The notes under the pieces were generated by a model. It did not search any database. It saw nothing but the letters and a program-made list of their open reading frames with translations, and had not been told where the DNA came from. A DNA stretch of 64,000 nucleotides from positions 62,001 to 126,000 of the forward strand of contig NW_025963913.1 of the NCBI RefSeq assembly GCF_023055435.1, read 5' to 3'. Position numbers and translations under genes: made by a program. Below, one piece after another: positions 1-60,235 of this stretch. Each line of letters opens with the position of its first letter. Position 1 is the first letter of the stretch. Source of the stretch: Haliotis rufescens. Lineage: Eukaryota.

Positions 1-473
1 GGGAGCAAGCGGGTCACAGGCACTGTAACAGTGAATAGTTTACTAAACTGCCTACAAGATAATTCGTCATTTCGTTAATAGTGAAAACCAATATCTAACT
101 GTTCATTAGATTTATGTCTTTTGAAAACAAGTTCAGCATGTCTGCAGGAATTCCAAGAAGTCGAAAATGTTGTGTATCATGTTCACGTTTTGTGACATTT
201 CAACTAAAATTCCCTAAAATGTTCAGGTTACCAATCACCATCTAAAGTTAATGTGAAACTCTACAATATAACACACTGGAAATTCCGAAAATTTGAATTG
301 GTTATTGTGCAATTCTGTAATAGAAGACCTTCATACAGACAATGAAAATTGAATATGCGGTGCGGAAACATCAGCGTTTCATTGTTTGTATTGTAAACAC
401 ATTAAAACAATCACATGTTACTTTGTCACTGGTCAAAATACAAATTTCAAATACCTGTCGTAGTGGGATTCAT
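1..473 (-). CDS. Partial seventh copy of the array gene: exon 1 (455-473) and start of exon 2 (1-22), continuing off the window
   Basis: Same sequence as 8438-8910. On the minus strand: ATG AAT CCC ACT ACG ACA G|gtattt ... ttacag|TGCCTGTG. Confidence 0.65.
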
Positions 474-539
474 AGTTTTCTCCACCTCTTCAAGTCGTAC
501 ACACTTTTAGAGTCGTATTTTGCACAATAAAACTGAGAA

Positions 540-680
540 CACTTCCAGTGATAGCTCTCAAAATGGCTGACACACAGGAAGGGCTAGCTGTTGTCATGAC
601 GCCGCTACTCTAGGCAAAACCACGCATGCGTCGACTTTATGCACAACTCGGCACTTCCGTCTGCCTTACATTGTGAATAA
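540..680. promoter_or_regulatory. Putative, possibly bidirectional, promoter block present in every unit
   Basis: Locally CpG-rich, with YY1-like CAAAATGGC (559-567), ETS-like CACTTCC (540, 651) and NRF1-like CGCATGCG (about 623). It lies 70-200 bp upstream of the minus-strand ATG. About 80 bp are identical even in the diverged terminal unit (about 49543-49623). Confidence 0.5.
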
Positions 681-1031
681 AGTTAGATCTACATCAACAC
701 TTGGCAGCCATCTATACAGGGTTGAACATGGAGAAGAAACGTTGTGAAATGCGAAGGTCATTCCAAGGGAAGCTACTCTAGTACAGTTTGCTACTTAAAA
801 AGAGTTACCGTGCTTGAATGAGGATTTTATGATCGCTTGAATGAATCATAAAAAAATACTTCATGTTTGCAATGAGAGTGAGTGAGTGAGTTACTTGTGG
901 GCCACCTGTGACCCCTTTACAATGTTAAAAGAAAATACCCTGACACTACATCTGTTAAGGTTTAGGCAATTCATTACCATTGTATATAGTTATTAATAAG
1001 CAAATTACATGAACATATTATTTTCTCTCAG

Positions 1032-1246
1032 ATTTAGGGTGTGTTCAAGATTGGAACTGCCACAATGGCTACTACAGGACTCAAACAGGAGTCACCCGGA
1101 AATCCTTATCTTATGCACAATAATTCAATAGAAGGGAAGCCAACTAAGTCACTGTAACATAATTCTTTAACCTTCCCCTGGCAACAATGGTTAGTACAGA
1201 AATAAAAATCGCGCCAAGGCAAAGTTGCTCAACAGGAGTATTCAAA
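1032..1246 (+). pseudogene. Disabled coding exon of a head-to-head partner gene, present in every unit
   Basis: Acceptor ttttctctcag|, strong Kozak gccacaATGG at 1065, reading MATTGLKQESPGNPYLMHNNSIEGKPTKSL* (TAA 1155-1157), and donor caaa|gtgag at 1247. The terminal unit has CAA at this stop and reads further. Confidence 0.4.
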
Positions 1247-1259
1247 GTGAGAAAGAAAT

Positions 1260-2760
1260 AGAGGAGGAGGGGTAAAGGGAAGTCCATTGGTAGGACGGAG
1301 GTAGGGGCAGGTGGGGGAAATGGGGATTATAAGAGGAGGACAGGTGAGGGGGGTTACATTGGTAGGACGGAGGTAGGGGCAGACGGGGAAATGGAGGAGG
1401 AGAGGTGAAGGGAAGTACATTGTTAGGACGGGAGTAGGGGCAGGTGGGGAAATTGGGGACATTGGAGGAGGAGAGGTGAAGGGAAGTACACTCGTAGGCC
1501 GGGGCTAGGGGCAGGTTGGGACATGGAGGATAGGTGAAGGGAAGTACATTGGTGGGTCGGAGGTAGGGGCAGGTGGGGAAATTGAGGACATCGGAGGTGG
1601 GGAGGTGAAGGGAAGTACATTGGTAGGTCGGAGGTAGGGGCAGTCGGAGAAATGGAGGAGGAGAGGTTCAGGGAAGTACATTGCTAGGACGGGGGTAGAG
1701 GCAGATCGGGAAATAGAGGACATTGGAGGGGGAGAGGGTAAGGGAAGTACATTGGTAGGTCGTAGGTTGGGGCAGGTGGGGAAATTGAGGACATCGGAGG
1801 TGGAGAGGTGAAGTGAAGTACATTGGTAGGTCGGAGGTAGGGGCAGTCGGAGAAATGGAGGTGGAGAGGTTCAGGGAAGTTTATTGTTAGGACGGGGGTA
1901 GAGGCAGGTGGGGAAATGGAGGACATTGGAGGAGGAGAGGGTAAGGGAAGTACAATGGTAGGTCTTAGGTTGGGGCAGGTGGGGAAATGGAGGACATTGG
2001 AGGAGAGGTGAAGGAAAGTACACTGGTAGGACGGAGGAAGGGGAAAGTTGGGAAATGGAGATCATTGAAGCAGGAGAGGTGAAGGGAAGCACACTGTTAA
2101 GACGGGGTTAGGAGCAGGTGGGGAAATGGAGGACATCGGAGGAGACAGTAAGGGATGTAATTGGTGTGATGGACGTAGGAGCAAATGGGGGGAAAGGGGG
2201 ACATGGGAGTATTTGTAGAGAAGGGAAGAGCGGTGGAAGGCCTGACGTAGGTGCAGGTTGGGAAACATAACGGGGTAGATACGTCACGGAGGGGTTGAGG
2301 GAAGTACAGTGGTTGGATGGAGGTAGGAGCAAGTGGGGAAAGCAGGAGCTGGTTGAGAAATAGGAGACATGGGAGCAGGAGAGGGGAAGAAAAAGAAAAG
2401 AAAAGTGGAGGGAAACAAAGGACATGAGCGAAAGAGACAGGGGAAGGGTTGGATGATACAGAGGCAGGATTAAAGGGGAAATGGAAATTATATAGGAGTA
2501 GGACAGGGTAAGGGAAGTTTTATTGGAGAACGGAGGTCGGGGCTGGTGTGGAAATTGGGACATTAGAGTAGGAGAGAGGTGTTGTACTTTAAGGGACCGA
2601 AACTGGAGGTAGAAACTGGTCTTGAATTGGTGACATGGGAGTAGCCAAGGTGAAGGAAACTATTGTGGAAATGGTGGGAAATTAGGGTCATGTGTTATGA
2701 GAGAGGATAGGTAGTAAAGTGGGGGGACGAAGATAAGAGAAATATTGATAGAAATTGAAA
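1260..2760. repeat. G-rich, purine-skewed minisatellite with units of about 61-72 bp, degenerating rightwards. One per unit (also about 9700, 18130, 26320, 33930, 41965).
   Basis: Reiterated GGTGAAGGGAAGTACATTGGTAGG(A/T)CGGAGGTAGGGGCAGGTGGGGAAAT. Length differs between units. Confidence 0.92.
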
Positions 2761-5096
2761 TTCTGAGGTAGTTTACCATTGTCCAAAGAAGGTAAATGCG
2801 CCATCATGATACTGGTTTCTGGTTCATCATTTCATTGTCTGGTTTGTTTACATGCCCCGTGGCATGGCAGGAGTACTGCTGTGTTGTGCCAGGAAACAAA
2901 GACATACTTTCTTGTGCAAATTTGGGAGGTACTATCCGTAGTGCAGGAAATGTTTACCATTTTCGTGAACACCTGGTGTCATCAACTGATTTTCACCCTT
3001 CTGTTCATAAACTTTTAATGTCTATTTTGCCTTTACAAGCAATGGAATCTGCTTATTCAAAGGCAAGGCAAGGACGTTCAATAATTTACAGCAGTGTAAA
3101 ACCATACTCAATCCTTTAGGTTCTGTGTTACTTTAAGTTAAAGAAATTAAAAGGTAAATTGTGCTAGGTAATGACATTATTTCCGTCATGTTATATTATA
3201 AATTGGTCATAAAACCGTTTCGGATTTCATATGTCAGAAAAGGAAGTTTCATAGTTTTCATATTTTCATATGACACATTCTCTTAATAGCTGAGAGAACG
3301 GCTCTGGCAAATACATGAGCTGAAATTAAACTGTCACAATGCCACAAGTACATCTACATGAGGCAAATCTGTGTCCCACCCGTGTATTGCTCGTGAAGAA
3401 GTATATCATATGACAAAATACATACTTGCTATATCAATGCATGTATCATCAGTGGTCATCAGAGTGACCCATCTTTTGTGTCCAGATCATGAAACATTTA
3501 CCATTCACCCGTGCTTGTCTATAGAATAAGTTAGTGACAATGGCAGCTAGTTGTGAAAAGTGATCTATGGAGGACCACCTGTGACATGCATATTATATCA
3601 ACTTATGATCAGTGCTCATGAAAGTAACACCTTTTGGTTTCCATATTAGAAAACTTTTACCTGTCACCCATTCTTGTCTCAAGAATGTGTAGGTCAAATC
3701 AGCTCCTGGCTATGAATATTATATGATAAAGGACCAGCTGTGACCTGGTTCGTTGTGTGTCATTGTGATTTATCTGGTCCAGACTGAAATATCTTACATG
3801 CCGCCACAATACAGCTGTAAGATTACGAACTACTTCAATCACTCACCCATTGGTTTGTTAACCATAACATGTTCCATGTGTGTATTGCTGCATTCAGAGA
3901 AACAACTGAGGCTATAGAAGTATAATACCGCTGTATCAGGTCTATTGGTTTGGAAAATGATACAGGTACTCACTCACATCTTACCAAGTATGTTCCACAT
4001 TTGTTTTACTCGCATCAGAGGAATCCATTCTCACCTTGGCAGTCATACTAAAGCATTTCTGAGCTTTTGTCTGAGAAAATACAAAACCTCCGTCTCAATG
4101 GACATATCGTATATTGTCTCTTGTCACTATATTGTGACAATATTGCAAGTGTGAAGTAAACGTTTAACTTAATGTCAGACACAGTAATTAAAACAATTGC
4201 TCACATGTTCTCTTAATATCTGGTCCTAAGTATATGACAAATAATCTAAGTGAAATTAAAATTTGATATTCCCCCTAATAAAAGCATTTTCAGTCTCGAG
4301 TGATGCACAAACATCTCAAAGTAATATATGGTGTGGGTTAAAAGAGTGTGCCAACCCCCATTTGGTATGCTGATGCCCATATTTCAATGTTGAAAATTAT
4401 ATTTCGTCTTTTTTTTCTTGCAAGGAGTGACAATTTAATAACAGATTTGTCTCTAAGCTAATGAGCTTACTTGGCCATGCATTGTATGTGAAATACCAGT
4501 TTAATTTACTTGCATCAGCTGTGAACACTGATATTACTCATGAATCACTAATGTGACAACTTATCGTTGCAATTTATGGCTCTCGTCAGGCATTGTTTGT
4601 GCAACAATGAGGATTAAAATCACAGAATATAATGGTGGCTTTTCGTTGAAGATACAAGCTGATACTTCATGACCATTTACAACCTTGTTCATTTACAACA
4701 GTCATACACACTGAGTGACATCACCAAGACAATGCTGTTAACTATCTATAATTGGTTACTGAGTCACTTTTGCGATGCTTAGCAATGTACTTTCACTCAA
4801 AATTGTTCCTCTACTTTTACAAACCACACAATTCAACTTCAGTTGTTAAAATAAAACATAACTACTACTAAGACTGCAAAGTGATATTTTATTATGAAAC
4901 CATTGTAGACATAAGTTAGAAACAAACACATGTTTTTCAGTTACATACTAAATAAACGGCCTCGAACCTCCCCTCACAGCCGCCCCTTTCCACACCTCAC
5001 ATACACTTACAAAACTGTACAGTGACATGTTTCCACTGTATATTTTTCATTACTTGATAGTAGAGTGAATATTTAGATAATTCACAGTGAAAAAAA

Positions 5097-7090
5097 CAGG
5101 AAAGAGTAGGATAGTAGAGACAACATTAAGATAAGAGATAATACAAGTCAGGAAACTGTTGTTTAGTAGAGGGAACCTTAAGATAATAGCTAGTACAAGA
5201 CAGGAAAGAGTTGGATAGTTGAGACAACATTAAGATAATAGCTAGTACAAGACAGGGAAGAGTAGGATAGTAGGGGAAACATATAAATGGTTCAAAACAC
5301 AACGCTGGAGAGACTAGGATAGTAGAGAGTAGAACAGTAAGACAGTACATCGTACAAAACAGGAAGAGAAGGATATCAGAGACAACATTAAGATATTAGA
5401 TAGTACAAGACAGGAAACTGTAGTTTAGTAGAGGGAACATTAAGATAATAGCTAGTACAAGACAGGAAAGAGTAGGATAGTAGGGGAAACATATAGATGG
5501 TTCAAAATACAACACTGGAGAGACTAGGATAGTAGAGAGTAGAACAGTAAGACAGTACATCGTACAAAACAGGAAGAGAAGGATATCAGAGACAGCATTA
5601 AGATATTAGATAGTACAAGGCAGGAAAGTAGAGGTAGATAGTAGATGGTAGATAGTACAAAGGTGGAGAGAATGGGATAGTAGAGAGGACATTAAGATAG
5701 TAGGTAGCAGAAGGAAGGAAAGAGTATGATAGTAGAGAAAAGAAAATGAAATAGCAGACAGTACAAGTCAGGGGAGAGTAGGTTAGGAGAAACAATAAGA
5801 TAGTAGATAGTACAAGACAGGGAAGAGGATAGTAGAGGTAGATACTGATAGTAGATGGTAGATAGTACAAAGGTGGAAAGAATGGGATAGTAGAGAGGTC
5901 CCTACGATAGTAGGTAGTACGAGGAAGGAAAGAGGATGATAGTCATGGTGGTAGAGAGAATAAAATTAAATATAAGACAGCACACAGGAGAGAGTAGGAT
6001 AGTAGAGGTAGAAAGTAACTCGTAGATAGTACGAAGGTGGAGGGAATGGAATAGCAGAGAGGATATTGAGATAGTAGAAGGAAGGAAAGAGGATGATAGT
6101 AGGGGAAAAAATTAAATAGCAGACAGTACAAGGCAGGGGAGAGTAGGATAGGAGAGACAACAATAAGATAGTAGATAGTACAAGGCAGGAAAGAGTAGGA
6201 TAATAGAGATAAGAAAATTAAGATAGCAAATAGTACAAGACAGGAGATAGTAAGATAGTAAGATAGAGTAAGATAGGATAGTGTAGTGTAGGACTGTATT
6301 TAGGCTAGTGTAGGTCAGTTAGGATAGTGAATGACTGGAGAGTGCATATATGTTTGGCAGTACACAGTAGGGTAGTGTTGGACAGTAACTGAGAGGATAG
6401 TGTAGGTCAGTAGAGAGTAGGTTAGTGTAGGCCAATACAGTGCAGTGTAGGAGAGTATCCAGACAGGAAAGATAGTAGGATAGATTAGGTAAGTATAGAG
6501 TAGGGTAGTAGCGTATTACAGTAGAATAGTGTAGGATAGAATAGGATAGTACAGAAGAGGGCAGAGTACGTCAGTACATGGTTGGGTGGTTTAGGACAGT
6601 ACAAAGTAAAGAAGAGAATGACAGTGCACGGTAGAGTAGGAGTGAGTGAGTGAGTGTGTATGGTTTTCCGGAGCTTTCAGAAATATTCCAGCAATATCAC
6701 GGCGGGAGACAACCAGAAATGGGCTTCAGACACTGTACCCATGTCAGGATTCAAACCCACGTTTTCGGTGTCACAAGCAAAAGCTTTAACCACTAGGCTA
6801 CCCGACTGCCCCAGAGTAGTGTAGGAAAGTATGTAGCAGAGTAGTATATGAAAGTACATAGTAGACTGACTCGAGTAGTGTATCACATTACATGGTAGTG
6901 TAGATTAGGCCAGTACATGGTAGGGTAAGGTAGTACAGTACATAGTAGAGTAGCATAGGAGTTGTGTGTGACAGTGCACGGTAGAGTAGTGTCAGATAGT
7001 ACATAGCAGACTAGTGTAGGATAGTACATAGCACAGAAGTGTAGCACAGTAGATGGTAGTGTAGAGCACAACAGTACAAAGTAGTACAAA
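5097..7090. repeat. Degenerate purine-rich (AGTAG/GATAG-based) tandem repeat tract. One per unit (also about 13533, 21954, 29218, 37514, 45791).
   Basis: Reiterated ACAGGAAAGAGTAGGATAGTAGAGACAACATTAAGAT..TAGTACAAG, with internal duplications of about 200 bp that vary between units. Confidence 0.88.
6640..6812 (-). mobile_element. tRNA-derived SINE with (ACTC)n tail, co-amplified in every unit (also 15076-15248, 23258-23430, 30873-31045, 38925-39097, 47198-47370)
   Basis: Minus strand shows A-box TAGCCTAGTGGTT, B-box GGTTTGAATCC, 3' GCTGGAATATT and a CACTCACTC tail. A candidate TSD AGAGTAG flanks both sides. Confidence 0.82.
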
Positions 7091-7187
7091 AACAATGACT
7101 GTTAGCGAAAGACATGAAAACCATGTATAAACCTCAACCTAACTATATTCCAATCTATACCTACCTGTTCCCTGCCCCTTACACTGT

Positions 7188-8910
7188 TTAGAAAAAGTCC
7201 CTGGTGCCAGATGAGAGACTGGAGCTGTACTCAGCCAGGAGAGCTTCCAGGTCCTCAAGAGTGTCCTGGGGCTCCTCCAGTCTCGCCTGCTTTACAGCTT
7301 GGGACACCTCGCTGTTGTCATCTGGGCACTTCCTCTTGCGTGAAGGCAGGGGCTCCTTGCTGGGCTCAGATGTGGGTTTCTTCTTTTTCCTTAAAATGAG
7401 TTTGGTAAGATACAGATATTCCACATCATATTCATCATCAGAGTTTAGCTCACATCTGTCCACTGACTTGGCAGAATGTACACTTAATGTTGCAGCAGTG
7501 ACACCACCTGACTTAGGACTCTCTGGTGCTGAAACAACCTTATCCTTTACATTCTTAACAGGGACAGGGGATGTCTTGCAACCTGTACTGGGCAAGACAG
7601 ACTTTGGCTTTAAGTATGCACCATCAGCAGACAACAACTGTTCAGCAAAACTCTTAGGTGAGGCCTTAATGATACTATTTCTACCCCCAGACTTAGTGAT
7701 ACGGTTCCCCAGGGGTCTGCTCTGGGTTTTGATGTGCTGAGCGCCAAGAGGCTGAGGCACAAAGTAGGGCTTGCTCTCTGGCTGATGCTTGATCATTTTC
7801 TCCTTCAGAATGCGAGGCGTTGGCTGAGGTTTTGGCCTGAACGTGCGGGGCTTGCGTTTGCAGGGCTTGAGCTCGAGTTTCTGCTTTTGATGGACATTGG
7901 GTTTGGGGTTGCTTGTTGTAGGCATGGGAGGAGTTTCAACATGGGCCATAGACTGGGGATGAGGAACTGGACTGGGTGGGTCAAGTTGGGGCAGAACACA
8001 GGAGAAGGCCTAATGGGCGATACAGTCATTGTATCATTTTTATATTTCATGATTACTTAAGTACAATGGAAGTATATCTCTACTATAAAAGCAAGTATAA
8101 TTATCTTTTGAGTTACGTTTTATAAATCATCAAAAGAACAAGAATACTCCTGCATACCTCTGGTCTTATCAGCTCCAGGTCTAGCACTGCACTGGGCAGG
8201 CTGACAGGCAGCTGGCAGACAGGCATCATCTCCCTACGTCTATTGCAAGATGGTGGCTGGACTGCAGGAGGCAAGGGGATAGCAGTCACAGATGACTGAC
8301 CTCCAGGCTGAAGGAGTCTTGGCTGTAGGTAACCAGCATCCAGGGAGAGGTTAACAGGATTACCAGCAGGTATCCAGATAGTGTTGTTATCTATCAGACA
8401 TCTGGTCCCATCTCCCAACACCACTGTTGGCAGCCCGGGGAGCAAGCGGGTCACAGGCACTGTAACAGTGAATAGTTTACTAAACTGCCTACAAGATAAT
8501 TCGTCATTTCGTTAATAGTGAAAACCAATATCTAACTGTTCATTAGATTTATGTCTTTTGAAAACAAGTTCAGCATGTCTGCAGGAATTCCAAGAAGTCG
8601 AAAATGTTGTGTATCATGTTCACGTTTTGTGACATTTCAACTAAAATTCCCTAAAATGTTCAGGTTACCAATCACCATCTAAAGTTAATGTGAAACTCTA
8701 CAATATAACACACTGGAAATTCCGAAAATTTGAATTGGTTATTGTGCAATTCTGTAATAGAAGACCTTCATACAGACAATGAAAATTGAATATGCGGTGC
8801 GGAAACATCAGCGTTTCATTGTTTGTATTGTAAACACATTAAAACAATCACATGTTACTTTGTCACTGGTCAAAATACAAATTTCAAATACCTGTCGTAG
8901 TGGGATTCAT
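7188..8910 (-). CDS. Array gene copy 1: unrecognised 380-aa Pro/Lys-rich, probably nuclear protein; complement(join(7188..8009,8158..8459,8892..8910))
   Basis: Kozak aactATG. Phase-1 intron ACAG|gtattt...ttacag|TG and phase-0 intron GAG|gtatgc...cccattag|GCC both join in frame. Protein reads MNPTTT-VPVTRLLPG...LIRPE-AFSCVLPQ...MAHVET...SGTRDFF*. Confidence 0.75.
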
Positions 8911-11900
8911 AGTTTTCTCCACCTCTTCAAGTCGTACACACTTTTAGAGTCGTATTTTGCACAATAAAACTGAGAACACTTCCAGTGATAGCTCTCAAAA
9001 TGGCTGACACACAGGAAGGGCTAGCTGTTGTCATGACGCCGCTACTCTAGGCAAAACCACGCATGCGTCGACTTTATGCACAACTCGGCACTTCCGTCTG
9101 CCTTACATTGTGAATAAAGTTAGATCTACATCAACACTTGGCAGCCATCTATACAGGGTTGAACATGGAGAAGAAACGTTGTGAAATGCGAAGGTCATTC
9201 CAAGGGAAGCTACTCTAGTACAGTTTGCTACTTAAAAAGAGTTACCGTGCTTGAATGAGGATTTTATGATCGCTTGAATGAATCATAAAAAAATACTTCA
9301 TGTTTGCAATGAGAGTGAGTGAGTGAGTTACTTGTGGGCCACCTGTGACCCCTTTACAATGTTAAAAGAAAATACCCTGACACTACATCTGTTAAGGTTT
9401 AGGCAATTCATTACCATTGTATATAGTTATTAATAAGCAAATTACATGAACATATTATTTTCTCTCAGATTTAGGGTGTGTTCAAGATTGGAACTGCCAC
9501 AATGGCTACTACAGGACTCAAACAGGAGTCACCCGGAAATCCTTATCTTATGCACAATAATTCAATAGAAGGGAAGCCAACTAAGTCACTGTAACATAAT
9601 TCTTTAACCTTCCCCTGGCAACAATGGTTAGTACAGAAATAAAAATCGCGCCAAGGCAAAGTTGCTCAACAGGAGTATTCAAAGTGAGAAAGAAATAGAG
9701 GAGGAGGGGTAAAGGGAAGTCCATTGGTAGGACGGAGGTAGGGGCAGGTGGGGGAAATGGGGATTATAAGAGGAGGACAGGTGAGGGGGGTTACATTGGT
9801 AGGACGGAGGTAGGGGCAGACGGGGAAATGGAGGAGGAGAGGTGAAGGGAAGTACATTGTTAGGACGGGAGTAGGGGCAGGTGGGGAAATTGGGGACATT
9901 GGAGGAGGAGAGGTGAAGGGAAGTACACTCGTAGGCCGGGGCTAGGGGCAGGTTGGGACATGGAGGATAGGTGAAAGGAAGTACATTGGTGGGTCGGAGG
10001 TAGGGGCAGGTGGGGAAATTGAGGACATCGGAGGTGGGGAGGTGAAGGGAAGTACATTGGTAGGTCGGAGGTAGGGGCAGTCGGAGAAATGGAGGAGGAG
10101 AGGTTCAGGGAAGTACATTGCTAGGACGGGGGTAGAGGCAGATCGGGAAATAGAGGACATTGGAGGGGGAGAGGGTAAGGGAAGTACATTGGTAGGTCGT
10201 AGGTTGGGGCAGGTGGGGAAATTGAGGACATCGGAGGTGGAGAGGTGAAGTGAAGTACATTGGTAGGTCGGAGGTAGGGGCAGTCGGAGAAATGGAGGTG
10301 GAGAGGTTCAGGGAAGTTTATTGTTAGGACGGGGGTAGAGGCAGGTGGGGAAATGGAGGACATTGGAGGAGGAGAGGGTAAGGGAAGTACAATGGTAGGT
10401 CTTAGGTTGGGGCAGGTGGGGAAATGGAGGACATTGGAGGAGAGGTGAAGGAAAGTACACTGGTAGGACGGAGGAAGGGGAAAGTTGGGAAATGGAGATC
10501 ATTGAAGCAGGAGAGGTGAAGGGAAGCACACTGTTAAGACGGGGTTAGGAGCAGGTGGGGAAATGGAGGACATCGGAGGAGACAGTAAGGGATGTAATTG
10601 GTGTGATGGACGTAGGAGCAAATGGGGGGAAAGGGGGACATGGGAGTATTTGTAGAGAAGGGAAGAGCGGTGGAAGGCCTGACGTAGGTGCAGGTTGGGA
10701 AACATAACGGGGTAGATACGTCACGGAGGGGTTGAGGGAAGTACAGTGGTTGGATGGAGGTAGGAGCAAGTGGGGAAAGCAGGAGCTGGTTGAGAAATAG
10801 GAGACATGGGAGCAGGAGAGGGGAAGAAAAAGAAAAGAAAAGTGGAGGGAAACAAAGGTCATGAGCGAAAGAGACAGGGGAAGGGTTGGATGATACAGAG
10901 GCAGGATTAAAGGGGAAATGGAAATTATATAGGAGTAGGACAGGGTAAGGGAAGTTTTATTGGAGAACGGAGGTCGGGGCTGGTGTGGAAATTGGGACAT
11001 TAGAGTAGGAGAGAGGTGTTGTACTTTAAGGGACCGAAACTGGAGGTAGAAACTGGTCTTGAATTGGTGACATGGGAGTAGCCAAGGTGAAGGAAACTAT
11101 TGTGGAAATGGTGGGAAATTAGGGTCATGTGTTATGAGAGAGGATAGGTAGTAAAGTGGGAGGACGAAGATAAGAGAAATATTGATAGAAATTGAAATTC
11201 TGAGGTAGTTTACCATTGTCCAAAGAAGGTAAATGCGCCATCATGATACTGGTTTCTGGTTCATCATTTCATTGTCTGGTTTGTTTACATGCCCCGTGGC
11301 ATGGCAGGAGTACTGCTGTGTTGTGCCAGGAAACAAAGACATACTTTCTTGTGCAAATTTGGGAGGTACTATCCGTAGTGCAGGAAATGTTTACCATTTT
11401 CGTGAACACCTGGTGTCATCAACTGATTTTCACCCTTCTGTTCATAAACTTTTAATGTCTATTTTGCCTTTACAAGCAATGGAATCTGCTTATTCAAAGG
11501 CAAGGCAAGGACGTTCAATAATTTACAGCAGTGTAAAACCATACTCAATCCTTTAGGTTCTGTGTTACTTTAAGTTAAAGAAATTAAAAGGTAAATTGTG
11601 CTAGGTAATGACATTATTTCCGTCATGTTATATTATAAATTGGTCATAAAACCGTTTCGGATTTCATATGTCAGAAAAGGAAGTTTCATAGTTTTCATAT
11701 TTTCATATGACACATTCTCTTAATAGCTGAGAGAACGGCTCTGGCAAATACATGAGCTGAAATTAAACTGTCACAATGCCACAAGTACATCTACATGAGG
11801 CAAATCTGTGTCCCACCCGTGTATTGCTCGTGAAGAAGTATATCATATGACAAAATACATACTTGCTATATCAATGCATGTATCATCAGTGGTCATCAGA

Positions 11901-14900: not shown

Positions 14901-15623
14901 AGGAAAGATAGTAGGATAGATTAGGTAAGTATAGAGTAGGGTAGTAGCGTATTACAGTAGAATAGTGTAGGATAGAATAGGATAGTACAGAAGAGGGCAG
15001 AGTACGTCAGTACATGGTTGGGTGGTTTAGGACAGTACAAAGTAAAGAAGAGAATGACAGTGCACGGTAGAGTAGGAGTGAGTGAGTGAGTGTGTATGGT
15101 TTTCCGGAGCTTTCAGAAATATTCCAGCAATATCACGGCGGGAGACAACCAGAAATGGGCTTCAGACACTGTACCCATGTCAGGATTCAAACCCACGTTT
15201 TCGGTGTCACAAGCAAAAGCTTTAACCACTAGGCTACCCGACTGCCCCAGAGTAGTGTAGGAAAGTATGTAGCAGAGTAGTATATGAAAGTACATAGTAG
15301 ACTGACTCGAGTAGTGTATCACATTACATGGTAGTGTAGATTAGGCCAGTACATGGTAGGGTAAGGTAGTACAGTACATAGTAGAGTAGCATAGGAGTTG
15401 TGTGTGACAGTGCACGGTAGAGTAGTGTCAGATAGTACATAGCAGACTAGTGTAGGATAGTACATAGCACAGAAGTGTAGCACAGTAGATGGTAGTGTAG
15501 AGCACAACAGTACAAAGTAGTACAAAAACAATGACTGTTAGCGAAAGACATGAAAATCATGTATAAACCTCAACCTAACTATACACCAATCTATACCTAC
15601 CTGTTCCCTGCCCCTTACACTGT

Positions 15624-23300: not shown

Positions 23301-23805
23301 ATATTCCAGCAATATCACGGCGGGAGACAACCAGAAATGGGCTTCAGACACTGTACCCATGTCAGGATTCAAACCCACGTTTTCGGTGTCACAAGCAAAA
23401 GCTTTAACCACTAGGCTACCCGACTGCCCCAGAGTAGTGTAGGAAAGTATGTAGCAGAGTAGTATATGAAAGTACATAGTAGACTGACTCGAGTAGTGTA
23501 TCACATTACATGGTAGTGTAGATTAGGCCAGTACATGGTAGGGTAAGGTAGTACAGTACATAGTAGAGTAGCATAGGAGTTGTGTGTGACAGTGCACGGT
23601 AGAGTAGTGTCAGATAGTACATAGCAGACTAGTGTAGGATAGTACATAGCACAGAAGTGTAGCACAGTAGATGGTAGTGTAGAGCACAACAGTACAAAGT
23701 AGTACAAAAACAATGACTGTTAGCGAAAGACATGAAAATCATGTATAAACCTCAACCTAACTATACACCAATCTATACCTACCTGTTCCCTGCCCCTTAC
23801 ACTGT

Positions 23806-39100: not shown

Positions 39101-39472
39101 GTAGTGTAGGAAAGTATGTAGCAGAGTAGTATATGAAAGTACATAGTAGACTGACTCGAGTAGTGTATAACATTACATGGTAGTGTAGATTAGGCCAGTA
39201 CATGGTAGGGTAAGGTAGTACAGTACATAGTAGAGTAGCATAGGAGTTGTGTGTGACAGTGCACGGTAGAGTAGTGTCAGATAGTACATAGCAGACTAGT
39301 GTAGGATAGTACATAGCACAGAAGTGTAGCACAGTAGATGGTAGTGTAGAGCACAACAGTACAAAGTAGTACAAAAACAATGACTGTTAGCGAAAGACAT
39401 GAAAACCATGTATAAACCTCAACCTAACTATACACCAATCTATACCTACCTGTTCCCTGCCCCTTACACTGT

Positions 39473-41180
39473 TTAGAAAAAGTCCCTGGTGCCAGATGAG
39501 AGACTGGAGCTGTACTCAGCCAGGAGAGCTTCCAGGTCCTCAAGAGTGTCCTGGGGCTCCTCCAGTCTCGCCTGCTTTACAACTTGGGACACCTCGCTGT
39601 TGTCATCTGGGCACTTCCTCTTGCGTGAAGGCAGGGGCTCCTTGCTGGGCTCAGATGTGGGTTTCTTCTTTTTCCTTAAAATGAGTTTGGTAAGATACAG
39701 ATATTCCACATCATATTCATCATCAGAGTTTGGCTCACATCTGTCCACTGACTTGGCAGAATGTACACTTAATGTTGCAGCAGTGACACCACCTGACTTA
39801 GGACTCTCTGGTGCTGAAACAACCTTATCCTTTACATTCTTAACAGGGACAGGGGATGTCTTGCAACCAGACTTTGGCTTTAAGTATGCACCATCAGCAG
39901 ACAACAACTGTTCAGCAAAACTCTTAGGTGAGGCCTTAATGATACTATTTCTACCCCCAGACTTAGTGATACGGTTCCCCAGGGGTCTGCTCTGGGTTTT
40001 GATGTGCTGAGCGCCAAGAGGCTGAGGCACAAAGTAGGGCTTGCTCTCTGGCTGATGCTTGATCATTTTCTCCTTCGGAATGCGAGGCGTTGGCTGAGGT
40101 TTTGGCCTGAACGTGCGGGGCTTGCGTTTGCAGGGCTTGAGCTCGAGTTTCTGCTTTTGATGGACATTGGGTTTGGGGTTGCTTGTTGTAGGCATGGGAG
40201 GAGTTTCAACATGGGCCATAGACTGGGGATGAGGAACTGGACTGGGTGGGTCAAGTTGGGGCAGAACACAGGAGAAGGCCTAATGGGCGATACAGTCATT
40301 GTATCATTTTTATATTTTATGATTACTTAAGTACAATGGAAGTATATCTCTACTATAAAAGCAAGTATAATTATCTTTTGAGTTACGTTTTATAAATCAT
40401 CAAAAGAACAAGAATACTCCTGCATACCTCTGGTCTTATCAGCTCCAGGTCTAGCACTGCACTGGGCAGGCTGACAGGCAGCTGGCAGACAGGCATCATC
40501 TCCCTACGTCTATTGCAAGATGGTGGCTGGACTGCAGGAGGCAAGGGGATAGCAGTCACAGATGACTGACCTCCAGGCTGAAGGAGTCTTGGCTGTAGGT
40601 AACCAGCATCCAGGGAGAGGTTAACAGGATTACCAGCAGGTATCCAGATAGTGTTGTTATCTATCAGACATCTGGTCCCATCTCCCAACACCACTGTTGG
40701 CAGCCCGGGGAGCAAGCGGGTCACAGGCACTGTAACAGTGAATAGTTTACTAAACTGCCTACAAGATAATTCGTCATTTCGTTAATAGTGAAAACCAATA
40801 TCTAACTGTTCATTAGATTTATGTCTTTTGAAAACAAGTTCAGCATGTCTGCAGGAATTCCAAGAAGTCGAAAATGTTGTGTATCATGTTCACGTTTTGT
40901 GACAGTACAACTAAAGTTCCCTAAAATGTTCAGGTTACCAATCACCATCTAAAGTTAATGTGAAACTCTACAATATAACACACTGGAAATTCCGAAAATT
41001 TGAATTGGTTATTGTGCAATTCTGTAATAGAAGATCTTCATACAGACAATGAAAATTGAATATGCGGTGCGGAAACATCAGCGTTTCATTGTTTGTATTG
41101 TAAACACATTAAAACAATCACATGTTACTTTGTCACTGGTCAAAATACAAATTTCAAATACCTGTCGTAGTGGGATTCAT
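39473..41180 (-). CDS. Array gene copy 5 (375 aa); complement(join(39473..40279,40428..40729,41162..41180))
   Basis: Same splice sites. In-frame 15-nt deletion (VLPST) in exon 3. Confidence 0.75.
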
Positions 41181-44100
41181 AGTTTTCTCCACCTCTTCAA
41201 GTCGTACACACTTTTAGAGTCGTATTTTGCACAATAAAACTGAGAACACTTCCAGTGATAGCTCTCAAAATGGCTGACACACAGGAAGGGCTAGCTGTTG
41301 TCATGACGCCGCTACTCTAGGCAAAACCACGCATGCGTCGACTTTATGCACAACTCGGCACTTCCGTCTGCCTTACATTGTGAATAAAGTTAGATCTACA
41401 TCAACACTTGGCAGCCATCTATACAGGGTTGAACATGGAGAAGAAACGTTGTGAAATGCGAAGGTCATTCCAAGGGAAGCTACTCTAGTAGAGTTTGCTA
41501 CTTAAAAAGAGTTACCGTGCTTGAATGAGGATTTTATGATCGCTTGAATGAATCATAAAAAAATACTTCATGTTTGCAATGAGAGTGAGTGAGTGAGTTA
41601 CTTGTGGGCCACCTGTGACCCCTTTACAATGTTAAAAAAAATACCCTGACACTACATCTGTTAAGGTTTAGGCAATTCATTACCATTGTATATAGTTATT
41701 AATAAGCAAATGACATGAACATATTATTTTCTCTCAGATTTAGGGTGTGTTCAAGATTGGAACTGCCACAATGGCTACTACAGGACTCAAACAGGAGTCA
41801 CCCGGAAATCCTTATCTTATGCACAATAATTCAATAGAAGGGAAGCCAACTAAGTCACTGTAACATAATTCTTTAACCTTCCCCTGGCAACAATGGTTAG
41901 TACAGAAATAAAAATCGCGCCAAGGCAAAGTTGCTCAACATGAGTATTCAAAGTGAGAAAGAAATAGAGGAGGAGGGGTAAAGGGAAGTCCATTGGTAGG
42001 ACGGAGGTAGGGGCAGGTGGGGGAAATGGGGATTATAAGAGGACAGGTGAGGGGGGTTACATTGGTAGGACGGAGGTAGGGGCAGACGGGGAAATGGAGG
42101 AGGAGAGGTGAAGGGAAGTACATTGTTAGGACGGGAGTAGGGGCAGGTGGGGAAATTGGGGACATTGGAGGAGGAGAGGGGAAGTACACTCGTAGGCCGG
42201 GGCTAGGGGCAGGTTGGGACATGGAGGATAGGTGAAGGGAAGTACATTGGTGGGTCGGAGGTAGGGGCAGGTGGGGAAATTGAGGACATCGGAGGTGGGG
42301 AGGTGAAGGGAAGTACATTGGTAGGTCGGAGGTAGGGGCAGTCGGAGAAATGGAGGAGGAGAGGTTCAGGGAAGTACATTGCTAGGACGGGGGTAGAGGC
42401 AGATCGGGAAATAGAGGACATTGGAGGGGGAGAGGGTAAGGGAAGTACATTGGTAGGTCGTAGGTTGGGGCAGATGGGGAAATTGAGGACATCGGAGGTG
42501 GAGAGGTGAAGTGAAGTACATTGGCAGGTCGGAGGTAGGGGCAGTCGGAGAAATGGAGGTGGAGAGGTTCAGGGAAGTACATTGTTAGGACGGGGGTAGA
42601 GGCAGGTGGGGAAATGGAGGACATTGGAGGAGGAGAGGGTAAGGGAAGTACAATGGTAGGTCGTAGGTTGGGGCAGGTGGGGAAATGGAGGACATTGGAG
42701 GAGAGGTGAAGGAAAGTACACTGGTAGGACGGAGGAAGGGGAAAGTTGGGAAATGGAGATCATTGAAGCAGGAGAGGTGAAGGGAAGCACACTGTTAAGA
42801 CGGGGTTAGGAGCAGGTGGGAAAATGGAGGACATCGGAGGAGACAGTAAGGGATGTAATTGGTGTGATGGACGTAGGAGCAAATGGGGGGAAAGGGGGAC
42901 ATGGGAGTATTTGTAGAGAAGGGAAGAGCGGTGGAAGGCCTGACGTAGGTGCAGGTTAGGAAACATAATGGGGTAGATACGTCACGGAGGGGTTGAGGGA
43001 AGTACAGTGGTTGGATGGAGGTAGGAGCAAGTGGGGAAAGCAGGAGCTGGTTGAGAAATAGGAGACATGGGAGCAGGAGAGGGGAAGAAAAAGAAAAAAA
43101 AAGTGGAGGGAAACAAAGGACATGAGCGAAAGAGACAGGGGAAGGGTTGGATGATACAGAGGCAGGATTAAAGGGGAAATGGAAATTATATAGGAGTAGG
43201 ACAGGGTAAGGGAAGTTTTATTGGAGAACGGAGGTCGGGGCTGGTGTGGAAATTGGGACATTAGAGTAGGAGAGAGGTGTTGTACTTTAAGGGACCGAAA
43301 CTGGAGGTAGAAACTGGTCTTGAATTGGTGACATGGGAGTAGCCAAGGTGAAGGAAACTATTGTGGAAATGGTGGGAAATTAGGGTCATGTGTTATGAGA
43401 GAGGATAGGTAGTAAAGTGGGAGGACGAAGATAAGAGAAATATTGATAGAAATTGAAATTCTGAGGTAGTTTACCATTGTCCAAAGAAGGTAAATGCGCC
43501 ATCATGATACTGGTTTCTGGTTCATCATTTCATTGTCTGGTTTGTTTACATGCCCCGTGGCATGGCAGGAGTACTGCTGTGTTGTGCCAGGAAACAAAGA
43601 CATACTTTCTTGTGCAAATTTGGGAGGTACTACCCGTAGTGCAGGAAATGTTTACCATTTTCGTGAACACCTGGTGTCATCAACTGATTTTCACCCTTCT
43701 GTTCATAAACTTTTAATGTCTATTTTGCCTTTACAAGCAATGGAATCTGCTTATTCAAAGGCAAGGCAAGGACGTTCAATAATTTACAGCAGTGTAAAAC
43801 CATACTCAATCCTTTAGGTTCTGTGTTACTTTAAGTTAAAGAAATTAAAAGGTAAATTGTGCTAGGTAATGACATTATTTCCATCATGTTATATTATAAA
43901 TTGGTCATAAAACCGTTTCGGATTTCATATGTCAGGAAAGGAAGTTTCATAGTTTTCATATTTTCATATGACACATTCTCTTAATAGCTGAGAGAACGGC
44001 TCTGGCAAATACATGAGCTGAAATTAAACTGTCACAATGCCACAAGTACATCTACATGAGGCAAATCTGTGTCCCACCCGTGTATTGCTCGTGAAGAAGT

Positions 44101-47100
44101 ATATGATATGACAAAATACATACTTGCTATATCAATGCATGTATCATCAGTGGTCATCAGAGTGACCCATCTTTTGTGTCCAGATCATGAAACATTTACC
44201 ATTCACCCGTGCTTGTCTATAGAATAAGTTAGTGACAATGGCAGCTAGTTGTGAAAAGTGATCTATGGAGGACCACCTGTGACATGCATATTCTATCAAC
44301 TTATGATCAGTGCTCATGAAAGTAACACCTTTTGGTTTCCATATTAGAAAACTTTTACCTGTCATCCATTCTTGTCTCAAGAATGTGTAGGTCAAATCAG
44401 CTCCTGGCTATGAATATTATATGATGAAGGACCACCTCTGACCTGGTTCGTTGTGTGTCATTGTGATTTATCTGGTCCAGACTGAAATATCTTACATGCC
44501 GCCACAATACAGCTGTAAGATTACGAACTACTTCAATCACTCACCCATTGGTTTGTTTACCATAACATGTTCCATGTGTGTATTTCTGCATTCAGAGAAA
44601 CAACTGAGGCTATAGAAGTATAATACCACTGTATCAGGTCTATTGGTTTGGAAAATGATACAGGTACTCACTCACATCTTACCAAGTATGTTCCACATTT
44701 GTTTTACTCGCATCAGAGAAATCCATTCTCACCTTGGCAGTCATACTAAAGCATTTCTGAGCTTTTGTCTGAGAAAATACAAAACCTCCGTCTCAATGGA
44801 CATATCGTATATTGTCCCTTGTCACTATATTGTGACAATATTGCAAGTGTGAAGTAGATTTAACTCAATGTCAGACACAGTAATTAAAACAATTGCTCAC
44901 ATGTTCTCTTAATATCTGGTGCTAAGTATATGACAAATAATCTAAGTGAAATTAAAATTTGATATTCCCCCTAATAAAAGCATTTTCAGTCTCGAGTGAT
45001 GCACAAACATCTCAAAGTAATATATGGTGTGGGTTAAAAGAGTGTGCCAACCCCCATTTGGTATGCTGATGCCCATATTTCAATGTTGAAAATTATATTT
45101 CGTCTTTTTTTTCTTGCAAGGAGTGACAATTTAATAACAGATTTATCTCTAAGCTAATGAGCTTACTTGGCCATGCATTGTATGTGAAATACCAGTTTAA
45201 TTTACTTGCATCAGCTATGAACACTGATATTACTCATGAATCACTAATGTGACAACTTATCGTTGCAATTTATGGCTCTCGTCAGGCATTGTTTGTGCAA
45301 CAATGAGGATTAAAATCACAGAATATATTGGTGGCTTTTCGTTGAAGATACAAGCTGATACTTCATGACCATTTACAACCTTGTTCATTTACAACAGTCA
45401 TACACACTGAGTGACATCACCAAGACAATGCTGTTAACTATCTATAATTGGTTACTGAGTCACTTTTGCGATGCTTAGCAATGTACTTTCACTCAAATTG
45501 TTCCTCTACTTTAACAAACCACACAACTCAACTTCAGTTGTTAAAATAAAACATAACTACTACTAAGACTGCAAAGTGATATTTTATTATGAAACCATTG
45601 TAGACATTAGTTAGAAACAAACACATGTTTTTCAGTTACATACTAAATAAACGGCCTCCAACCTCCCCTCACAGCCGCCCCTTTCCACACCTCACATACA
45701 CTTACAAAACTGTACAGTGACATGTTTCCACTGTATATTTTTCATTACTTGATAGTAGAGTGAATATTTAGATAATTCACAGTGAAAAAAACAGGAAAGA
45801 GTAGGATAGTAGAGACAACATTAAGATAAGAGATAATACAAGTCAGGAAACTGTTGTTTAGTAATGGGAACATTAAGATACTAGCTAGTACAAGACAGGA
45901 AAGAGTAGGATAGTAGAGACAACATTAAGGTAATAGCTAGTACAAGACAGGGAAGAGTAGGATAGTAGGGGAAACATATAAATGGTTCAAAACACAACGC
46001 TGGAGAGACTAGGATAGTAGAGAGTAGAACAGTAAGACAGTACATCGTACAAAACAGGAAGAGAAGGATATCAGAGACAACATTAAGATATTAGATAGTA
46101 CAAGACAGGAAACTGTAGTTTAGTAGAGGGAACATTAAGATAATAGCTAGTACAAGACAGGAAAGAGTAGGATAGTAGGGGAAACATATAGATGGTTCAA
46201 AATACAACACTGGAGAGACTAGGATAGTAGAGAGTAGAACAGTAAGACAGTACATCGTACAAAACAGGAAGAGAAGGATATCAGAGACAACATTAAGATA
46301 TTAGTACAAGGCAGGAAAGTAGAGGTAGATAGTAGATGGTAGATAGTACAAAGGTGGAGAGAATTGGATAGTAGAGAGGACATTAAGTAGGTAGCAGAAG
46401 GAAGGAAAGAGTATGATAGTAGAGAAAAGAAAATGAAATAGCAGACAGTACAAGTCAGGAGAGAGTAGGTTAGGAGAAACAATAAGATAGTAGATAGTAC
46501 AAGACAGGGAAGAGGATAGTAGAGGTAGATACTGATAGTAGATGGTAGATAGTACAAAGGTGGAAAGAATGGGATAGTAGAGAGGTCCCTACGATAGTAG
46601 GTAGTACGAGGAAGGAAAGAGGATGATAGTCATGGTGGTAGAGAGAATAAAATCAAATATAAGACAGCACACAGGAGGAAGGAGAAAGACAGGAGAGAGA
46701 GTAGGATAGGAGAGACAACGATAAGATAGTAGATAGTACAAGGCAGGAAAGAGTAGGATAATAGAGAGAAGAAAATTAAGATAGCAAATAGTACAAGACA
46801 GGAGATAGTAAGATAGTAAGATAGAGTAAGATAGGATAGTGTAGTGTAGGACTGCATTTAGGCTAGTGTAGGTCAGTTAGGATAGTGAATGACTGGAGAG
46901 TGCATATATGTTTGGCAGTACACAGTAGGGTAGTGTTGGACAGTAACTGAGAGGATAGTGTAGGTCAGTAGAGAGTAGGTTAGTGTAGGCCAATACAGTG
47001 CAGTGTAGGAGAGTATCCAGACAGGAAAGATAGTAGGATAGATTAGGTAAGTATAGAGTAGGGTAGTAGCGTATTACAGTAGAATAGTGTAGGATAGAAT

Positions 47101-47745
47101 AGGATAGTACAGAAGAGGGCAGAGTACGTCAGTACATGGTTGGGTGGTTTAGGACAGTATAAAGTAAAGAAGAGAATGACAGTGCACGGTAGAGTAGGAG
47201 TGAGTGAGTGAGTGTGTATGGTTTTCCGGAGCTTTCAGAAATATTCCAGCAATATCACGGCGGGAGACAACCAGAAATGGGCTTCAGACACTGTACCCAT
47301 GTCAGGATTCAAACCCACGTTTTCGGTGTCACAAGCAAAAGCTTTAACCACTAGGCTACCCGACTGCCCCAGGGTAGTGTAGGAAAGTATGTAGCAGAGT
47401 AGTATATGAAAGTACATAGTAGACTGACTCGAGTAGTGTATAACATTACATGGTAGTGTAGATTAGGCCAGTACATGGTAGGGTAAGGTAGTACAGTACA
47501 TAGTAGAGTAGCATAGGAGTTGTGTGTGACAGTGCACGGTAGAGTAGTGTCAGATAGTACATAGCAGACTAGTGTAGGATAGTACATAGCACAGAAGTGT
47601 AGCACAGTAGATGGTAGTGTAGAGCACAACAGTACAAAGTAGTACAAAAACAATGACTGTTAGCGAAAGACGTGAAAATCATGTATAAACCTCAACCTAA
47701 CTATACACCAATCTATACCTACCTGTTCCCTGCCCCTTACACTGT

Positions 47746-49461
47746 TTAGAAAAAGTCCCTGGTGCCAGATGAGAGACTGGAGCTGTACTCAGCCAGGAGA
47801 GCTTCCAGGTCCTCAAGAGTGTCCTGGGGCTCCTCCAGTCTCGCCTGCTTTACAGCTTGGGACACCTCGCTGTTGTCATCTGGGCACTTCCTCTTGCGTG
47901 AAGGCAGGGGCTCCTTGCTGGGCTCAGATGTGGGTTTCTTCTTTTTCCTTAAAATGAGTTTGGTAAGATACAGATATTCCACATCATATTCATCATCAGA
48001 GTTTGGCTCACATCTGTCCACTGACTTGGCAGAATGTACACTTAATGTTGCAGCAGTGACACCACCTGACTTAGGACTCTCTGGTGCTGAAACAACCTTA
48101 TCCTTTACATTCTTAACAGGGACAGGGGATGTCTTGCAACCTGTACTGGGCAAGACAGACTTTGGCTTTAAGTATGCACCATCAGCAGACAACAACTGTT
48201 CAGCAAAACTCTTAGGTGAGGCCTTAATGATACTATTTCTACCCCCAGACTTAGTGATACGGTTCCCCAGGGGTCTGCTCTGGGTTTTGATGTGCTGAGC
48301 GCCAAGAGGCTGAGGCACAAAGTAGGGCTTGCTCTCTGGCTGATGCTTGATCATTTTCTCCTTCGGAATGCGAGGCGTTGGCTGAGGTTTTGGCCTGAAC
48401 GTGCGGGGCTTGCGTTTGCAGGGCTTGAGCTCGAGTTTCTGCTTTTGATGGACATTGGGTTTGGGGTTGCTTGTTGTAGGCATGGGAGGAGTTTCAACAT
48501 GGGCCATAGACTGGGGATGAGGAACTGGACTGGGTGGGTCAAGTTGGGGCAGAACACAGGAGAAGGCCTAATGGGCGATACAGTCATTGTATCATTTTTA
48601 TATTTCATGATTACTTAAGTACAATGGAAGTATATCTCTACTATAAAAGCAAGTATAATTATCTTTTGAGTTACGTTTTATAAATCATCAAAAGAACAAG
48701 AATACTCCTGCATACCTCTGGTCTTATCAGCTCCAGGTCTAGCACTGCACTGGGCAGGCTGACAGGCAGCTGGCAGACAGGCATCATCTCCCTACGTCTA
48801 TTGCAAGATGGTGGCTGGACTGCAGGAGGCAAGGGGATAGCAGTCACAGATGACTGACCTCCAGGCTGAAGGAGTCTTGGCTGTAGGTAACCAGCATCCA
48901 GGGAGAGGTTAACAGGATTACCAGCAGGTATCCAGATAGTGTTGTTATCTATCAGACATCTGGTCCCATCTCCCAACACCACTGTTGGCAGCCCGGGGAG
49001 CAAGCGGGTCACAGGCACTGTAACAGTGAATAGTTTCCTAAACTGCCTACAAGATAATTCGCCATTTCAATAATAGTGAGAACCAATATCTAACTGTTCA
49101 TTAGACTTATGTCTTTTGAAAACAAGATCAGCGTGTCTGCAGGAATTCCACAAAGTCGAAAATGTTGTGTATCATGTTCACGTCTTGTGACAGTACAACT
49201 AAAATTCCCTAAAATGTTCAGGTAACCAATCACCATCTAAAGTTATTGTGAAACTCTACAATATAACACACTGGAAATTCCGAAAATTGAAATTGGTTAT
49301 TGTGCAACTCTTACTCTGTAATATAAGACCTTCATACAGTCAATGCGGTCCGGAAACATCAGCGTTTCATTGTTTGCTTTGTAAACACATTGAAACAATC
49401 ACATGTTACTTTGTCATTGGTCAAAATACAAATTTCAAATACCTGTCGTAGTGGGATTCAT
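47746..49461 (-). CDS. Array gene copy 6 (380 aa); complement(join(47746..48567,48716..49017,49443..49461))
   Basis: Same splice sites. Exon 1 and its donor are unchanged although they sit in the diverged terminal unit. Confidence 0.75.
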
Positions 49462-50018
49462 AGTTTTCTCCACCTCTTCAAGTCGTACGCACTTGTAGAG
49501 TCGTATTTTGCACAATAATACTGTGATCACTTCCAGTGAAATCTCTCAAAATGGCTGACACACAGGAAGGGCTAGCTGTTGTCATGACGCCGCTACTCTA
49601 GGCAAAACCACGCATGCGTCGACCTTATGCATAACCCGGCACTTCCATCTGCCTTACATTGTAAATATAGACAGATCTACATCAACACTTGGTAGCCATC
49701 TCCAGGTTGAACATTGAGAACAAACGTTGTGAAATGTGAAGGTCATTCCAAGGGAAGCTACTCTAGTAGAGGTTAATACTTAAAAGGGGTTACCGTGCTT
49801 GAATGAGGATTTTATGCACGCTTGAATGAATCATTAAAAATACTTCATTTTTGCAATGAGAGTGAGTGAGTGAGTGAGTTACTTGTGGGCCACCTGTGCC
49901 CCCTTCACAATGTTAAATAAAATACCCTGACACTACATATGTTAAGGTTTAGGCAGTTCATTACCATTGTATATAGTAATTGATAAACAGATTACGTCAA
50001 CGTATTACTTTCTCTCAG

Positions 50019-53649: not shown

Positions 53650-53659
53650 TCAATTTTAA

Positions 53660-56928: not shown

Positions 56929-56940
56929 TCTGAAGAATTG

Positions 56941-60186: not shown

Positions 60187-60235
60187 GTAAGAGGGTGTTG
60201 GTATGTCCACCACTGCTTGCTGTATGCTGGACAGT

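Follow-up and report, generated by a model that had tools for sequence, protein, structure and literature searches.

Based on the collective evidence of self-BLAST, a list of gene copies and a BLAST comparison of the terminal with an inner unit, the 64,000-nt stretch of Haliotis rufescens DNA analysed here (the window, to whose positions all coordinates refer) is understood to carry at 1..52164, on the minus strand, a tandem array of at least seven units bearing the same three-exon gene. We are highly confident that the array is truly tandem, and the gene is almost certainly a real protein-coding one. Taken as a whole, the observations seem best explained by the amplification of an abalone-restricted gene that would encode a nuclear adaptor and be broadly expressed, a reading that we favour by modest preference. 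That the copy number itself is under selection is considered rather doubtful.

Gene structure and array organization

The gene takes the same form in six of six full copies, with a 19-nt exon 1, GT-AG introns of 425-432 and 148 nt, and a TAA stop codon. In the reference copy (ATG at 8910, minus strand), the coding part of exon 1 (8892..8910, 19 nt, with the ATG) ends at a junction that is also present in the NCBI protein P0001, introduced below. Exon 2 (8158..8459, 302 nt) encodes a conserved three-strand N-terminal module (residues 12-37), and exon 3 (7188..8009, 822 nt with the stop) encodes a basic Pro/Lys region, a 17-residue invariant block, Lys/Arg clusters and an acidic terminal helix. 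The original prediction, made from the letters of this DNA, had described a three-exon protein of 375-382 amino acids (aa) with intact ATG, splice sites and stop; all six full copies confirm it, with the junctions 8892/8459 and 8158/8009 as it had placed them.

All copies lie on the minus strand. The terminal copy (47746..49461, 380 aa) is diverged from the inner units in its upstream DNA and intron 1, and homogenised from exon 2 onward. It is followed by copies at 39473..41180 (375 aa, with a 15-nt in-frame deletion), 31421..33142 (380 aa, in a unit with a 940-bp deletion), 23806..25534 (382 aa, with a 6-nt in-frame insertion) and 15624..17346 (380 aa), by the reference copy (380 aa), and by a seventh (1..473) that the window edge cuts inside exon 2. 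Both coding indels (+6, -15) preserve the frame. With 17 coding substitutions, the neutral expectation is a probability of 0.52 for no stop and of 0.06-0.11 for both indels in frame, jointly about 0.03-0.06; because neutral chance would leave the copies intact in 3-6% of cases, the intactness of six copies is weak evidence on its own. Comparison with eight full-length relatives from four species (66-82% identity, with many in-frame gaps) appears to be more informative. Invariant columns (151 of 380) are clustered, and their longest run of 17, against six expected, was reached in 0 of 20000 shuffles. This clustering across eight proteins is taken as strong evidence for function.

The ATG codons, at 49461, 41180, 33142, 25534, 17346, 8910 and 473, are arranged head-to-tail with spacings of 8281, 8038, 7608, 8188, 8436 and 8437 bp. 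The claimed number of at least seven copies is borne out (six full, one cut by the window edge), whereas the claimed unit size of about 8.4 kb fits only two neighbouring spacings and does not hold as a general size, the range being 7.6-8.4 kb. The array continues past the left window edge. To the right, it had been thought to end at 49461, but BLAST of the terminal unit against an inner unit carries the homology 2.7 kb further, to 52164. With 52164 corresponding to 11970 and a spacing of 8437, one complete unit phased to the array edge occupies 3534..11970 (8437 bp, minus strand).

The locus shows the characteristics of a gene-bearing macrosatellite or tandem gene array in three respects: it consists of multi-kb head-to-tail units (7.6-8.4 kb) of high pairwise identity (98.2-99.7%, a divergence of 0.3-1.8%), each full copy provides a single intact gene per unit (six of six), and the units recombine and homogenise, as seen from incompatible site pairs, sharing between neighbours and a diverged edge. 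Outside the minisatellites, 113 of 325 informative site pairs are incompatible. Private variants number 5-45 per unit, and neighbouring units share derived variants (26 for those of ATG 49461 and 41180, six for 17346 and 8910). Between terminal and inner units there are 102 events in 1202 columns, from the upstream region through intron 1; of the private sites of the terminal unit, 21 of 31 fall in intron 1 and none in exon 2, intron 2 or exon 3. We infer an old tandem duplication beside the gene for nischarin, which unequal crossing-over and gene conversion would later have expanded and homogenised, leaving a diverged relic unit at the array edge.

A gene family confined to Haliotis

With exon 3 as query, a 380-aa H. 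rufescens protein was retrieved from NCBI (LOC125383238, P0001) in which both exon junctions are identical, so the claim that the gene was hidden does not hold. P0001 is one residue off the copies of ATG 49461 and 8910 and, because it equals none of the six full copies, probably represents the seventh copy or one further to the left. Its cluster comprises six sequences, all on one contig of 13.8 Mb, and nine H. rufescens sequences on one 46.8 Mb contig make up a second cluster. The family counts 16 proteins, of which 15 are assigned to Haliotis (six H. rufescens, four H. rubra, two H. cracherodii, three H. asinina). Its NCBI models include LOC125383238, LOC124127748, LOC124110703, LOC124143084 and LOC125377798 (H. 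rufescens) and LOC124272259 (H. rubra), together with relatives, under automatic and mutually conflicting names ('uncharacterized', 'titin-like', 'EspI-like'). Of the sister models on another scaffold, several (P0003, P0011, P0014, P0015) are short or incomplete.

HMMER against 1.84 billion representatives gave five matches at E<=0.001, all of them family members, and hence no homologue outside the Haliotis family at that cut-off, with unannotated gastropod genomes lying outside the search; one further match of the family search had E 0.63, above the cut-off. In the trees, some lineages unite H. rubra with H. asinina copies. In tests on the eight full-length proteins, with groups named after the trees had been inspected, a species clade was rejected in the case of H. 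asinina (p 1e-56) and of H. rubra (p 4e-4), but H. rufescens was compatible with one (p 0.16). As judged from these trees, the family was multi-copy before these Haliotis species split and is an old abalone family. The notion of a lineage-restricted gene is thus upheld, and 'orphan' is apt at the level of the genus, but not within it, where an old multi-copy family is found in four species.

The six family gene ids are not named in the literature searched, from which subscription papers and most supplements lay outside. The available part of a heat-stress supplement (PMC12070547) holds 277 LOC124 ids, none of which is one of the five family ids checked.

Three observations on individual relatives are added. 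The H. rubra protein P0016 lies on an 8448-bp contig, near the unit length here, a size that could reflect an array unit collapsed during draft assembly or could be coincidental. P0009 (H. cracherodii) and P0015 (H. rufescens) form a supported pair (97/93); both models break or are cut short where exon 2 ends, which may point to a further donor some 15 nt upstream. P0009 is also without about 78 residues inside exon 3.

Predicted properties of the protein

The protein is pictured as a mostly disordered nuclear adaptor, not an enzyme, and that it would dock partners via short modules is a view to which, from models of its structure, we are somewhat inclined. In the full-protein model, the predicted local distance difference test score (pLDDT) has a mean of 43.5, three strands lie within residues 18-35 and helices at 228-235, 303-315 and 358-372, the last of these being acidic and amphipathic. 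The N-terminal block folded alone (50-aa model) reaches a pLDDT of 77 over residues 11-30, with three strands predicted. Charge is sorted along the chain, residues 146-265 being basic (27 Lys and Arg vs 6 Asp and Glu) and residues 336-380 acidic, at an isoelectric point of 9.5. Lys/Arg clusters are found at 314-318 (in 10 of the 10 proteins reaching the region) and 331-334, and the family alignment contains an invariant helix of LxxLL type; 'nuclear signals' and 'LxxLL type' are names that we presume to apply. There is no membrane segment, and no hydrophobic segment scores above 1.24. The Lys/Arg clusters may thus mediate nuclear import, the basic middle (146-265) may provide retention on chromatin or RNA, and the three-strand module and the acidic helix (358-372) may dock partners such as co-regulators.

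Some short motifs are tentative leads. A PxVxL/M motif, presumably of HP1 type, occurs at residue 17 in nine of the 12 proteins with all or part of the region; the Pro is missing in two relatives and the site lies inside a predicted strand. A PxDLS-like motif, presumably of CtBP type, occurs in five of 13 proteins. A presumed resemblance between the C-terminal motifs and SARAH or ET-binding motifs is given no weight. Neighbours in the Atlas are disordered nuclear proteins, PWWP2A (fragment cluster), NEXMIF and NPAT, whose scores of 0.75-0.79 are often reached by shuffled proteins and involve no alignment; what is shared are language-model features of long, disordered nuclear proteins that carry short motifs, and the neighbours are leads only, not homologues. 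For the last 85 residues, the best profile matches in PDB were Mpp10 (E 0.22) and DNAJC9 (E 0.79), neither significant. None of the fold searches produced a match at E<=0.001 or Z>=5.

The origin of the N-terminal module deserves separate consideration. By eye, it follows what we take to be the WW pattern, with a Leu-Pro-x-Gly start, a Gly turn, Asp-x-Asn-Thr and a final Trp-x-Pro, and like WW domains it would be, as predicted, a three-strand module of about 26 residues; unlike them, it is without the first Trp and the aromatic pair. Among the Foldseek rows listed for the module, WW chains account for 4/12 and 8/45, all at E above 1; they are absent from the VIA fold-search list, which leaves WW possible. 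None of 11 family members matched Pfam WW, where filters drop weak matches, and none of 16 family proteins matched the WW signature that we assume. Descent from a WW domain is accordingly a tentative idea that we hold to be less than probable. Filing the module as a WW domain was rejected, given the missing first Trp and aromatic pair, the short third strand and the negative profile searches (Pfam, PDB). The atypical WW domains described in the available text of PMC8576004 retain the first Trp.

Candidate promoter, CpG content and splicing

A candidate TATA-less promoter with 5' untranslated region (UTR) is placed at 8911..9100 (minus strand) from motifs conserved in all seven copies, a chance control and an identical run. 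The motifs, which we take to be YY1-like (-94), NRF1-like (-156) and ETS-like (-185, -108, -73), occur in seven of seven copies, while a TATA motif is absent in six of seven. All three occurred together in 0/20000 of the chance control, the motifs having been chosen after the sequence was seen. A footprint of 81 identical nt between the terminal and an inner unit is marginal (P 0.055).

Exons 2-3 have a CpG observed/expected ratio (o/e) of 0.19, vs 1.03 for GpC, and the 250 nt upstream one of 0.74. Coding CpGs number 15 vs 71 +/- 6 expected from synonymous resampling; two short nischarin exons, taken for comparison, have CpG o/e 0.41 and GpC 0.65. CpG transitions make up three of the 17 exon changes among units, too few for a test. 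In the oyster, according to the parts of the sources available, housekeeping genes are over-represented in the low-CpG class (PMC2996979), and the expression of methylated genes is high and even (PMC3840415). The strong exon CpG loss together with the TATA-less promoter suggests broad expression, probably with the germ line included, and disfavours a silent array with one burst of expression. It thus argues against a DUX4-like gene that stays silent until an embryonic burst, but leaves room for the germ-line expression that the original prediction had considered possible.

An alternative entry into exon 3 is predicted at 7366..7389 (minus strand), where an acceptor AG ending at 7390, present in six of six copies, would lead into a shifted frame with a stop after seven codons. 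With exon 2 spliced to this inner acceptor (7390/7389), the predicted product has 114-116 aa, and an identical seven-residue tail follows exon 2 in the NCBI models P0014 (H. rufescens, four members) and P0013 (H. rubra). The inner acceptor sits within the invariant block. Its use would yield a 114-aa form that lacks both the nuclear signals and the helix and may buffer the consequences of additional copies. The 3' region (4888..7164, minus strand) may open with the donor of a 3'-UTR intron 23 nt past the stop (7164), and has its first AATAAA at 4893; an acceptor for this intron was sought and could not be placed. Provided that the intron exists and opens at this donor, the short form would, by the 50-nt rule for decay targets, be a target of decay and the full form would not.

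Alternative explanations

Several points weigh against the reading that we favour, of an amplified, abalone-restricted gene for a broadly expressed nuclear adaptor. The case for role, partner, localisation and expression is drawn from sequence and models; searches of the family in Pfam, NCBIfam, PHROGs and by PDB profile gave no family match; the low pLDDT, obtained with 10 sequences, partly reflects a shallow alignment; and short motifs can arise by chance. The entire unit is CpG-poor (0.35 vs 0.56 in the flank), so that repeat methylation could explain some of the loss, and the rule connecting CpG with expression derives from a bivalve. For the short form, the evidence comes from two automatic gene models, and the 17-residue invariant block overlaps the alternative acceptor, so that its conservation may partly reflect splicing and not the protein. 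Selection within the array, lastly, is not detectable from the 17 coding changes.

This last point leads to the alternative that survives best, namely that the gene is functional and the array neutral, with a copy number that drifts through unequal crossing-over at a locus rich in minisatellites and with additional copies that contribute nothing in particular. We regard it as a serious contender, if somewhat short of an even chance. Within the array, 11 nonsynonymous and six synonymous changes show no departure from neutral (P 0.21) and so lend no support to a selected copy number, or to the dosage-driven amplification of the original prediction; several of the sister models are, moreover, short or partial (P0003, P0011, P0014, P0015). 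The unit divergence of 0.3-1.8% resembles the heterozygosity of 1.37% given for one red abalone in the available text of PMC9709998. Drift alone is less easily reconciled with six of six intact copies (joint chance about 0.03-0.06) and with the several copies kept by each of the four species.

A regulator of the germ line or early embryo, if amplified through genetic conflict or selection on dosage in the manner of the DUX4, CT47 and PRR20 arrays, would account for a multi-copy state that recurs in four species and for fast-changing linkers around fixed motifs, as well as for the acidic terminal helix and the nuclear-signal-like motifs. CpG loss needs germ-line methylation, consistent with germ-line transcription, and mammalian precedents have units of 3.3-6.6 kb (PMC3599962, available text). 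We nevertheless consider this explanation unlikely, given that no DNA-binding domain was found in Pfam and fold searches, that the exon CpG o/e is 0.19 and the promoter housekeeping-like, and that the literature searched names none of the six family gene ids. A bolder proposal, improbable in its entirety, joins these elements: an abalone-born chromatin regulator would have arisen from a degenerate WW domain and been amplified repeatedly, in one Haliotis lineage after another, through selection on dosage or conflict in the germ line; a splice switch, itself conserved and lying in the most conserved coding block, would adjust the dose by means of a short form that serves as a decoy or is destined for decay. 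Of these elements, the WW lead and the splice switch most deserve to be pursued.

That the unit is a fragment of a mobile element or endogenous virus with the open reading frame (ORF) as cargo is very improbable. The spread of family members over several scaffolds, a DDE_1 transposase fragment in front of exon 2 in the H. rubra model P0013 and a short interspersed nuclear element (SINE)-like element inside the unit might suggest it. Against it, 38 other ORFs scanned (36 of 58 listed, and two further) gave no transposase or reverse transcriptase, two of them having unrelated matches below the cut-off; the unit has no strong terminal inverted repeat pair; and searches of viral families and folds found no match for the protein and no transposase, reverse transcriptase, integrase or viral gene. 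Spliceosomal introns at conserved positions and few copies per species point the same way, and the DDE_1 join of P0013, which runs through the end of intron 1, is probably a model artefact near an inserted element. A match to a known transposon or endogenous virus, named beforehand as what would overturn the array interpretation, was thus not obtained in ORF, repeat and viral searches; of the reported absence of transposase, reverse transcriptase, rRNA and small nuclear RNA sequence, the scans of ORFs and of the window with Rfam and for tRNA genes (no match) leave all standing, except that the unit does carry the SINE-like element (6644..6811).

Assembly duplication can be dismissed as scarcely credible although the array was judged from assembled sequence, not reads, and its divergence is near allelic divergence, because units that differ by 0.3-1.8% show local recombination, six of them with 5-45 private variants and distinct indels exceed what two haplotypes can supply, their relatedness follows neighbour order, and, if the window stems from the published red abalone assembly, the HiFi reads (mean 15 kb, 50.8x; PMC9709998, available text) speak against it.

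Repeats of the unit and the nischarin flank

The SINE-like element (6644..6811, minus strand), present in each unit, matches copies in the flank at 73-90% and is presumed to be tRNA-derived from its A/B-box-like motifs and CACT tail. Much of the variation in unit length stems from a 52-bp minisatellite (5056..6282, no strand assigned) carried by each unit and identified by repeat analysis and unit comparison; upstream of the gene, these analyses and self-BLAST delimit a purine-rich 61/71-bp minisatellite (9691..10784, no strand assigned). At the latter place the terminal unit has a regular 61-bp minisatellite (50512-51414) and the inner units a mixed 61/71-bp form, the regular form being possibly the older state. 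The 940-bp deletion in the unit of ATG 33142, near 28850, removed spacer DNA and spared the first AATAAA. A dispersed repeat occurs in at least five copies (52201-52293, 55383-55604, 57752-57868, 58654-58815, 62533-62831), one of which directly adjoins the edge of the array (52164) and could have been the seed of the initial duplication.

Outside the array, and head-to-head with the terminal copy, the first three coding exons of nischarin (52708-52794, predicted; 60103-60186; 63212-63394) span 52708..63394 on the plus strand (PX domain; nischarin E 4.8e-15). The predicted first exon lies 544 bp from the array edge, with a YY1-like motif 80 nt ahead of its ATG. Intron 1 holds nested, inverted repeats resembling a miniature inverted-repeat transposable element (53201-53649; 52-nt arms 90%, 25-nt arms 92%), and a 61-bp minisatellite of about 23 copies occupies 60237-61636 in a nischarin intron. 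At 63353-64000, a 52-bp tandem repeat of 12 or more copies has a unit that takes in the 3' end of nischarin exon 3 together with the splice donor of that exon, and because the donor lies in the repeat unit, it is repeated many times. A literature search combining Haliotis and nischarin gave nothing relevant.

Relation to known arrays and significance

We regard the array as one of a known kind and the protein family as previously undescribed. Gene-bearing macrosatellites, D4Z4/DUX4 and RS447/USP17 among them, are on record (PMC4063668, PMC3599962), and the available text of PMC3599962 gives FLJ40296/PRR20 (6.6 kb unit, about nine units) and CT47 (4.8 kb) in human. These last two are closer in build than DUX4, with multi-kb head-to-tail units of one intact gene each and, in PRR20, a proline-rich product and a low-copy array; they differ in that no sequence relation was found and that the abalone array, in a mollusc, has CpG-poor exons. 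D4Z4/DUX4 and RS447/USP17 likewise carry a gene in every unit, but the abalone protein is without homeodomain or protease domain, its coding region has introns and far fewer units are seen; a double homeodomain had no Pfam match in 10 family members and the model has no helical domain. D4Z4 is CpG-rich, whereas the abalone unit is CpG-depleted. The acidic, leucine-rich terminal helix is, we presume, alike in DUX4.

Lastly, the locus has importance as a well-resolved, testable case of a conserved, abalone-only gene present in several clusters, one of them in active turnover, in a genus that is farmed and threatened and for which public resequencing and RNA data exist. Copy-number differences are common between close abalone species and have been proposed to build up early in speciation (PMC9936805, available text, in which the six LOC ids printed include none of the known family ids). 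If the WW link is true, the family shows an apparent orphan arising from an old domain; and a WW-derived, dose-tuned regulator, if such it were, would be a mollusc counterpart of the mammalian macrosatellite regulators.

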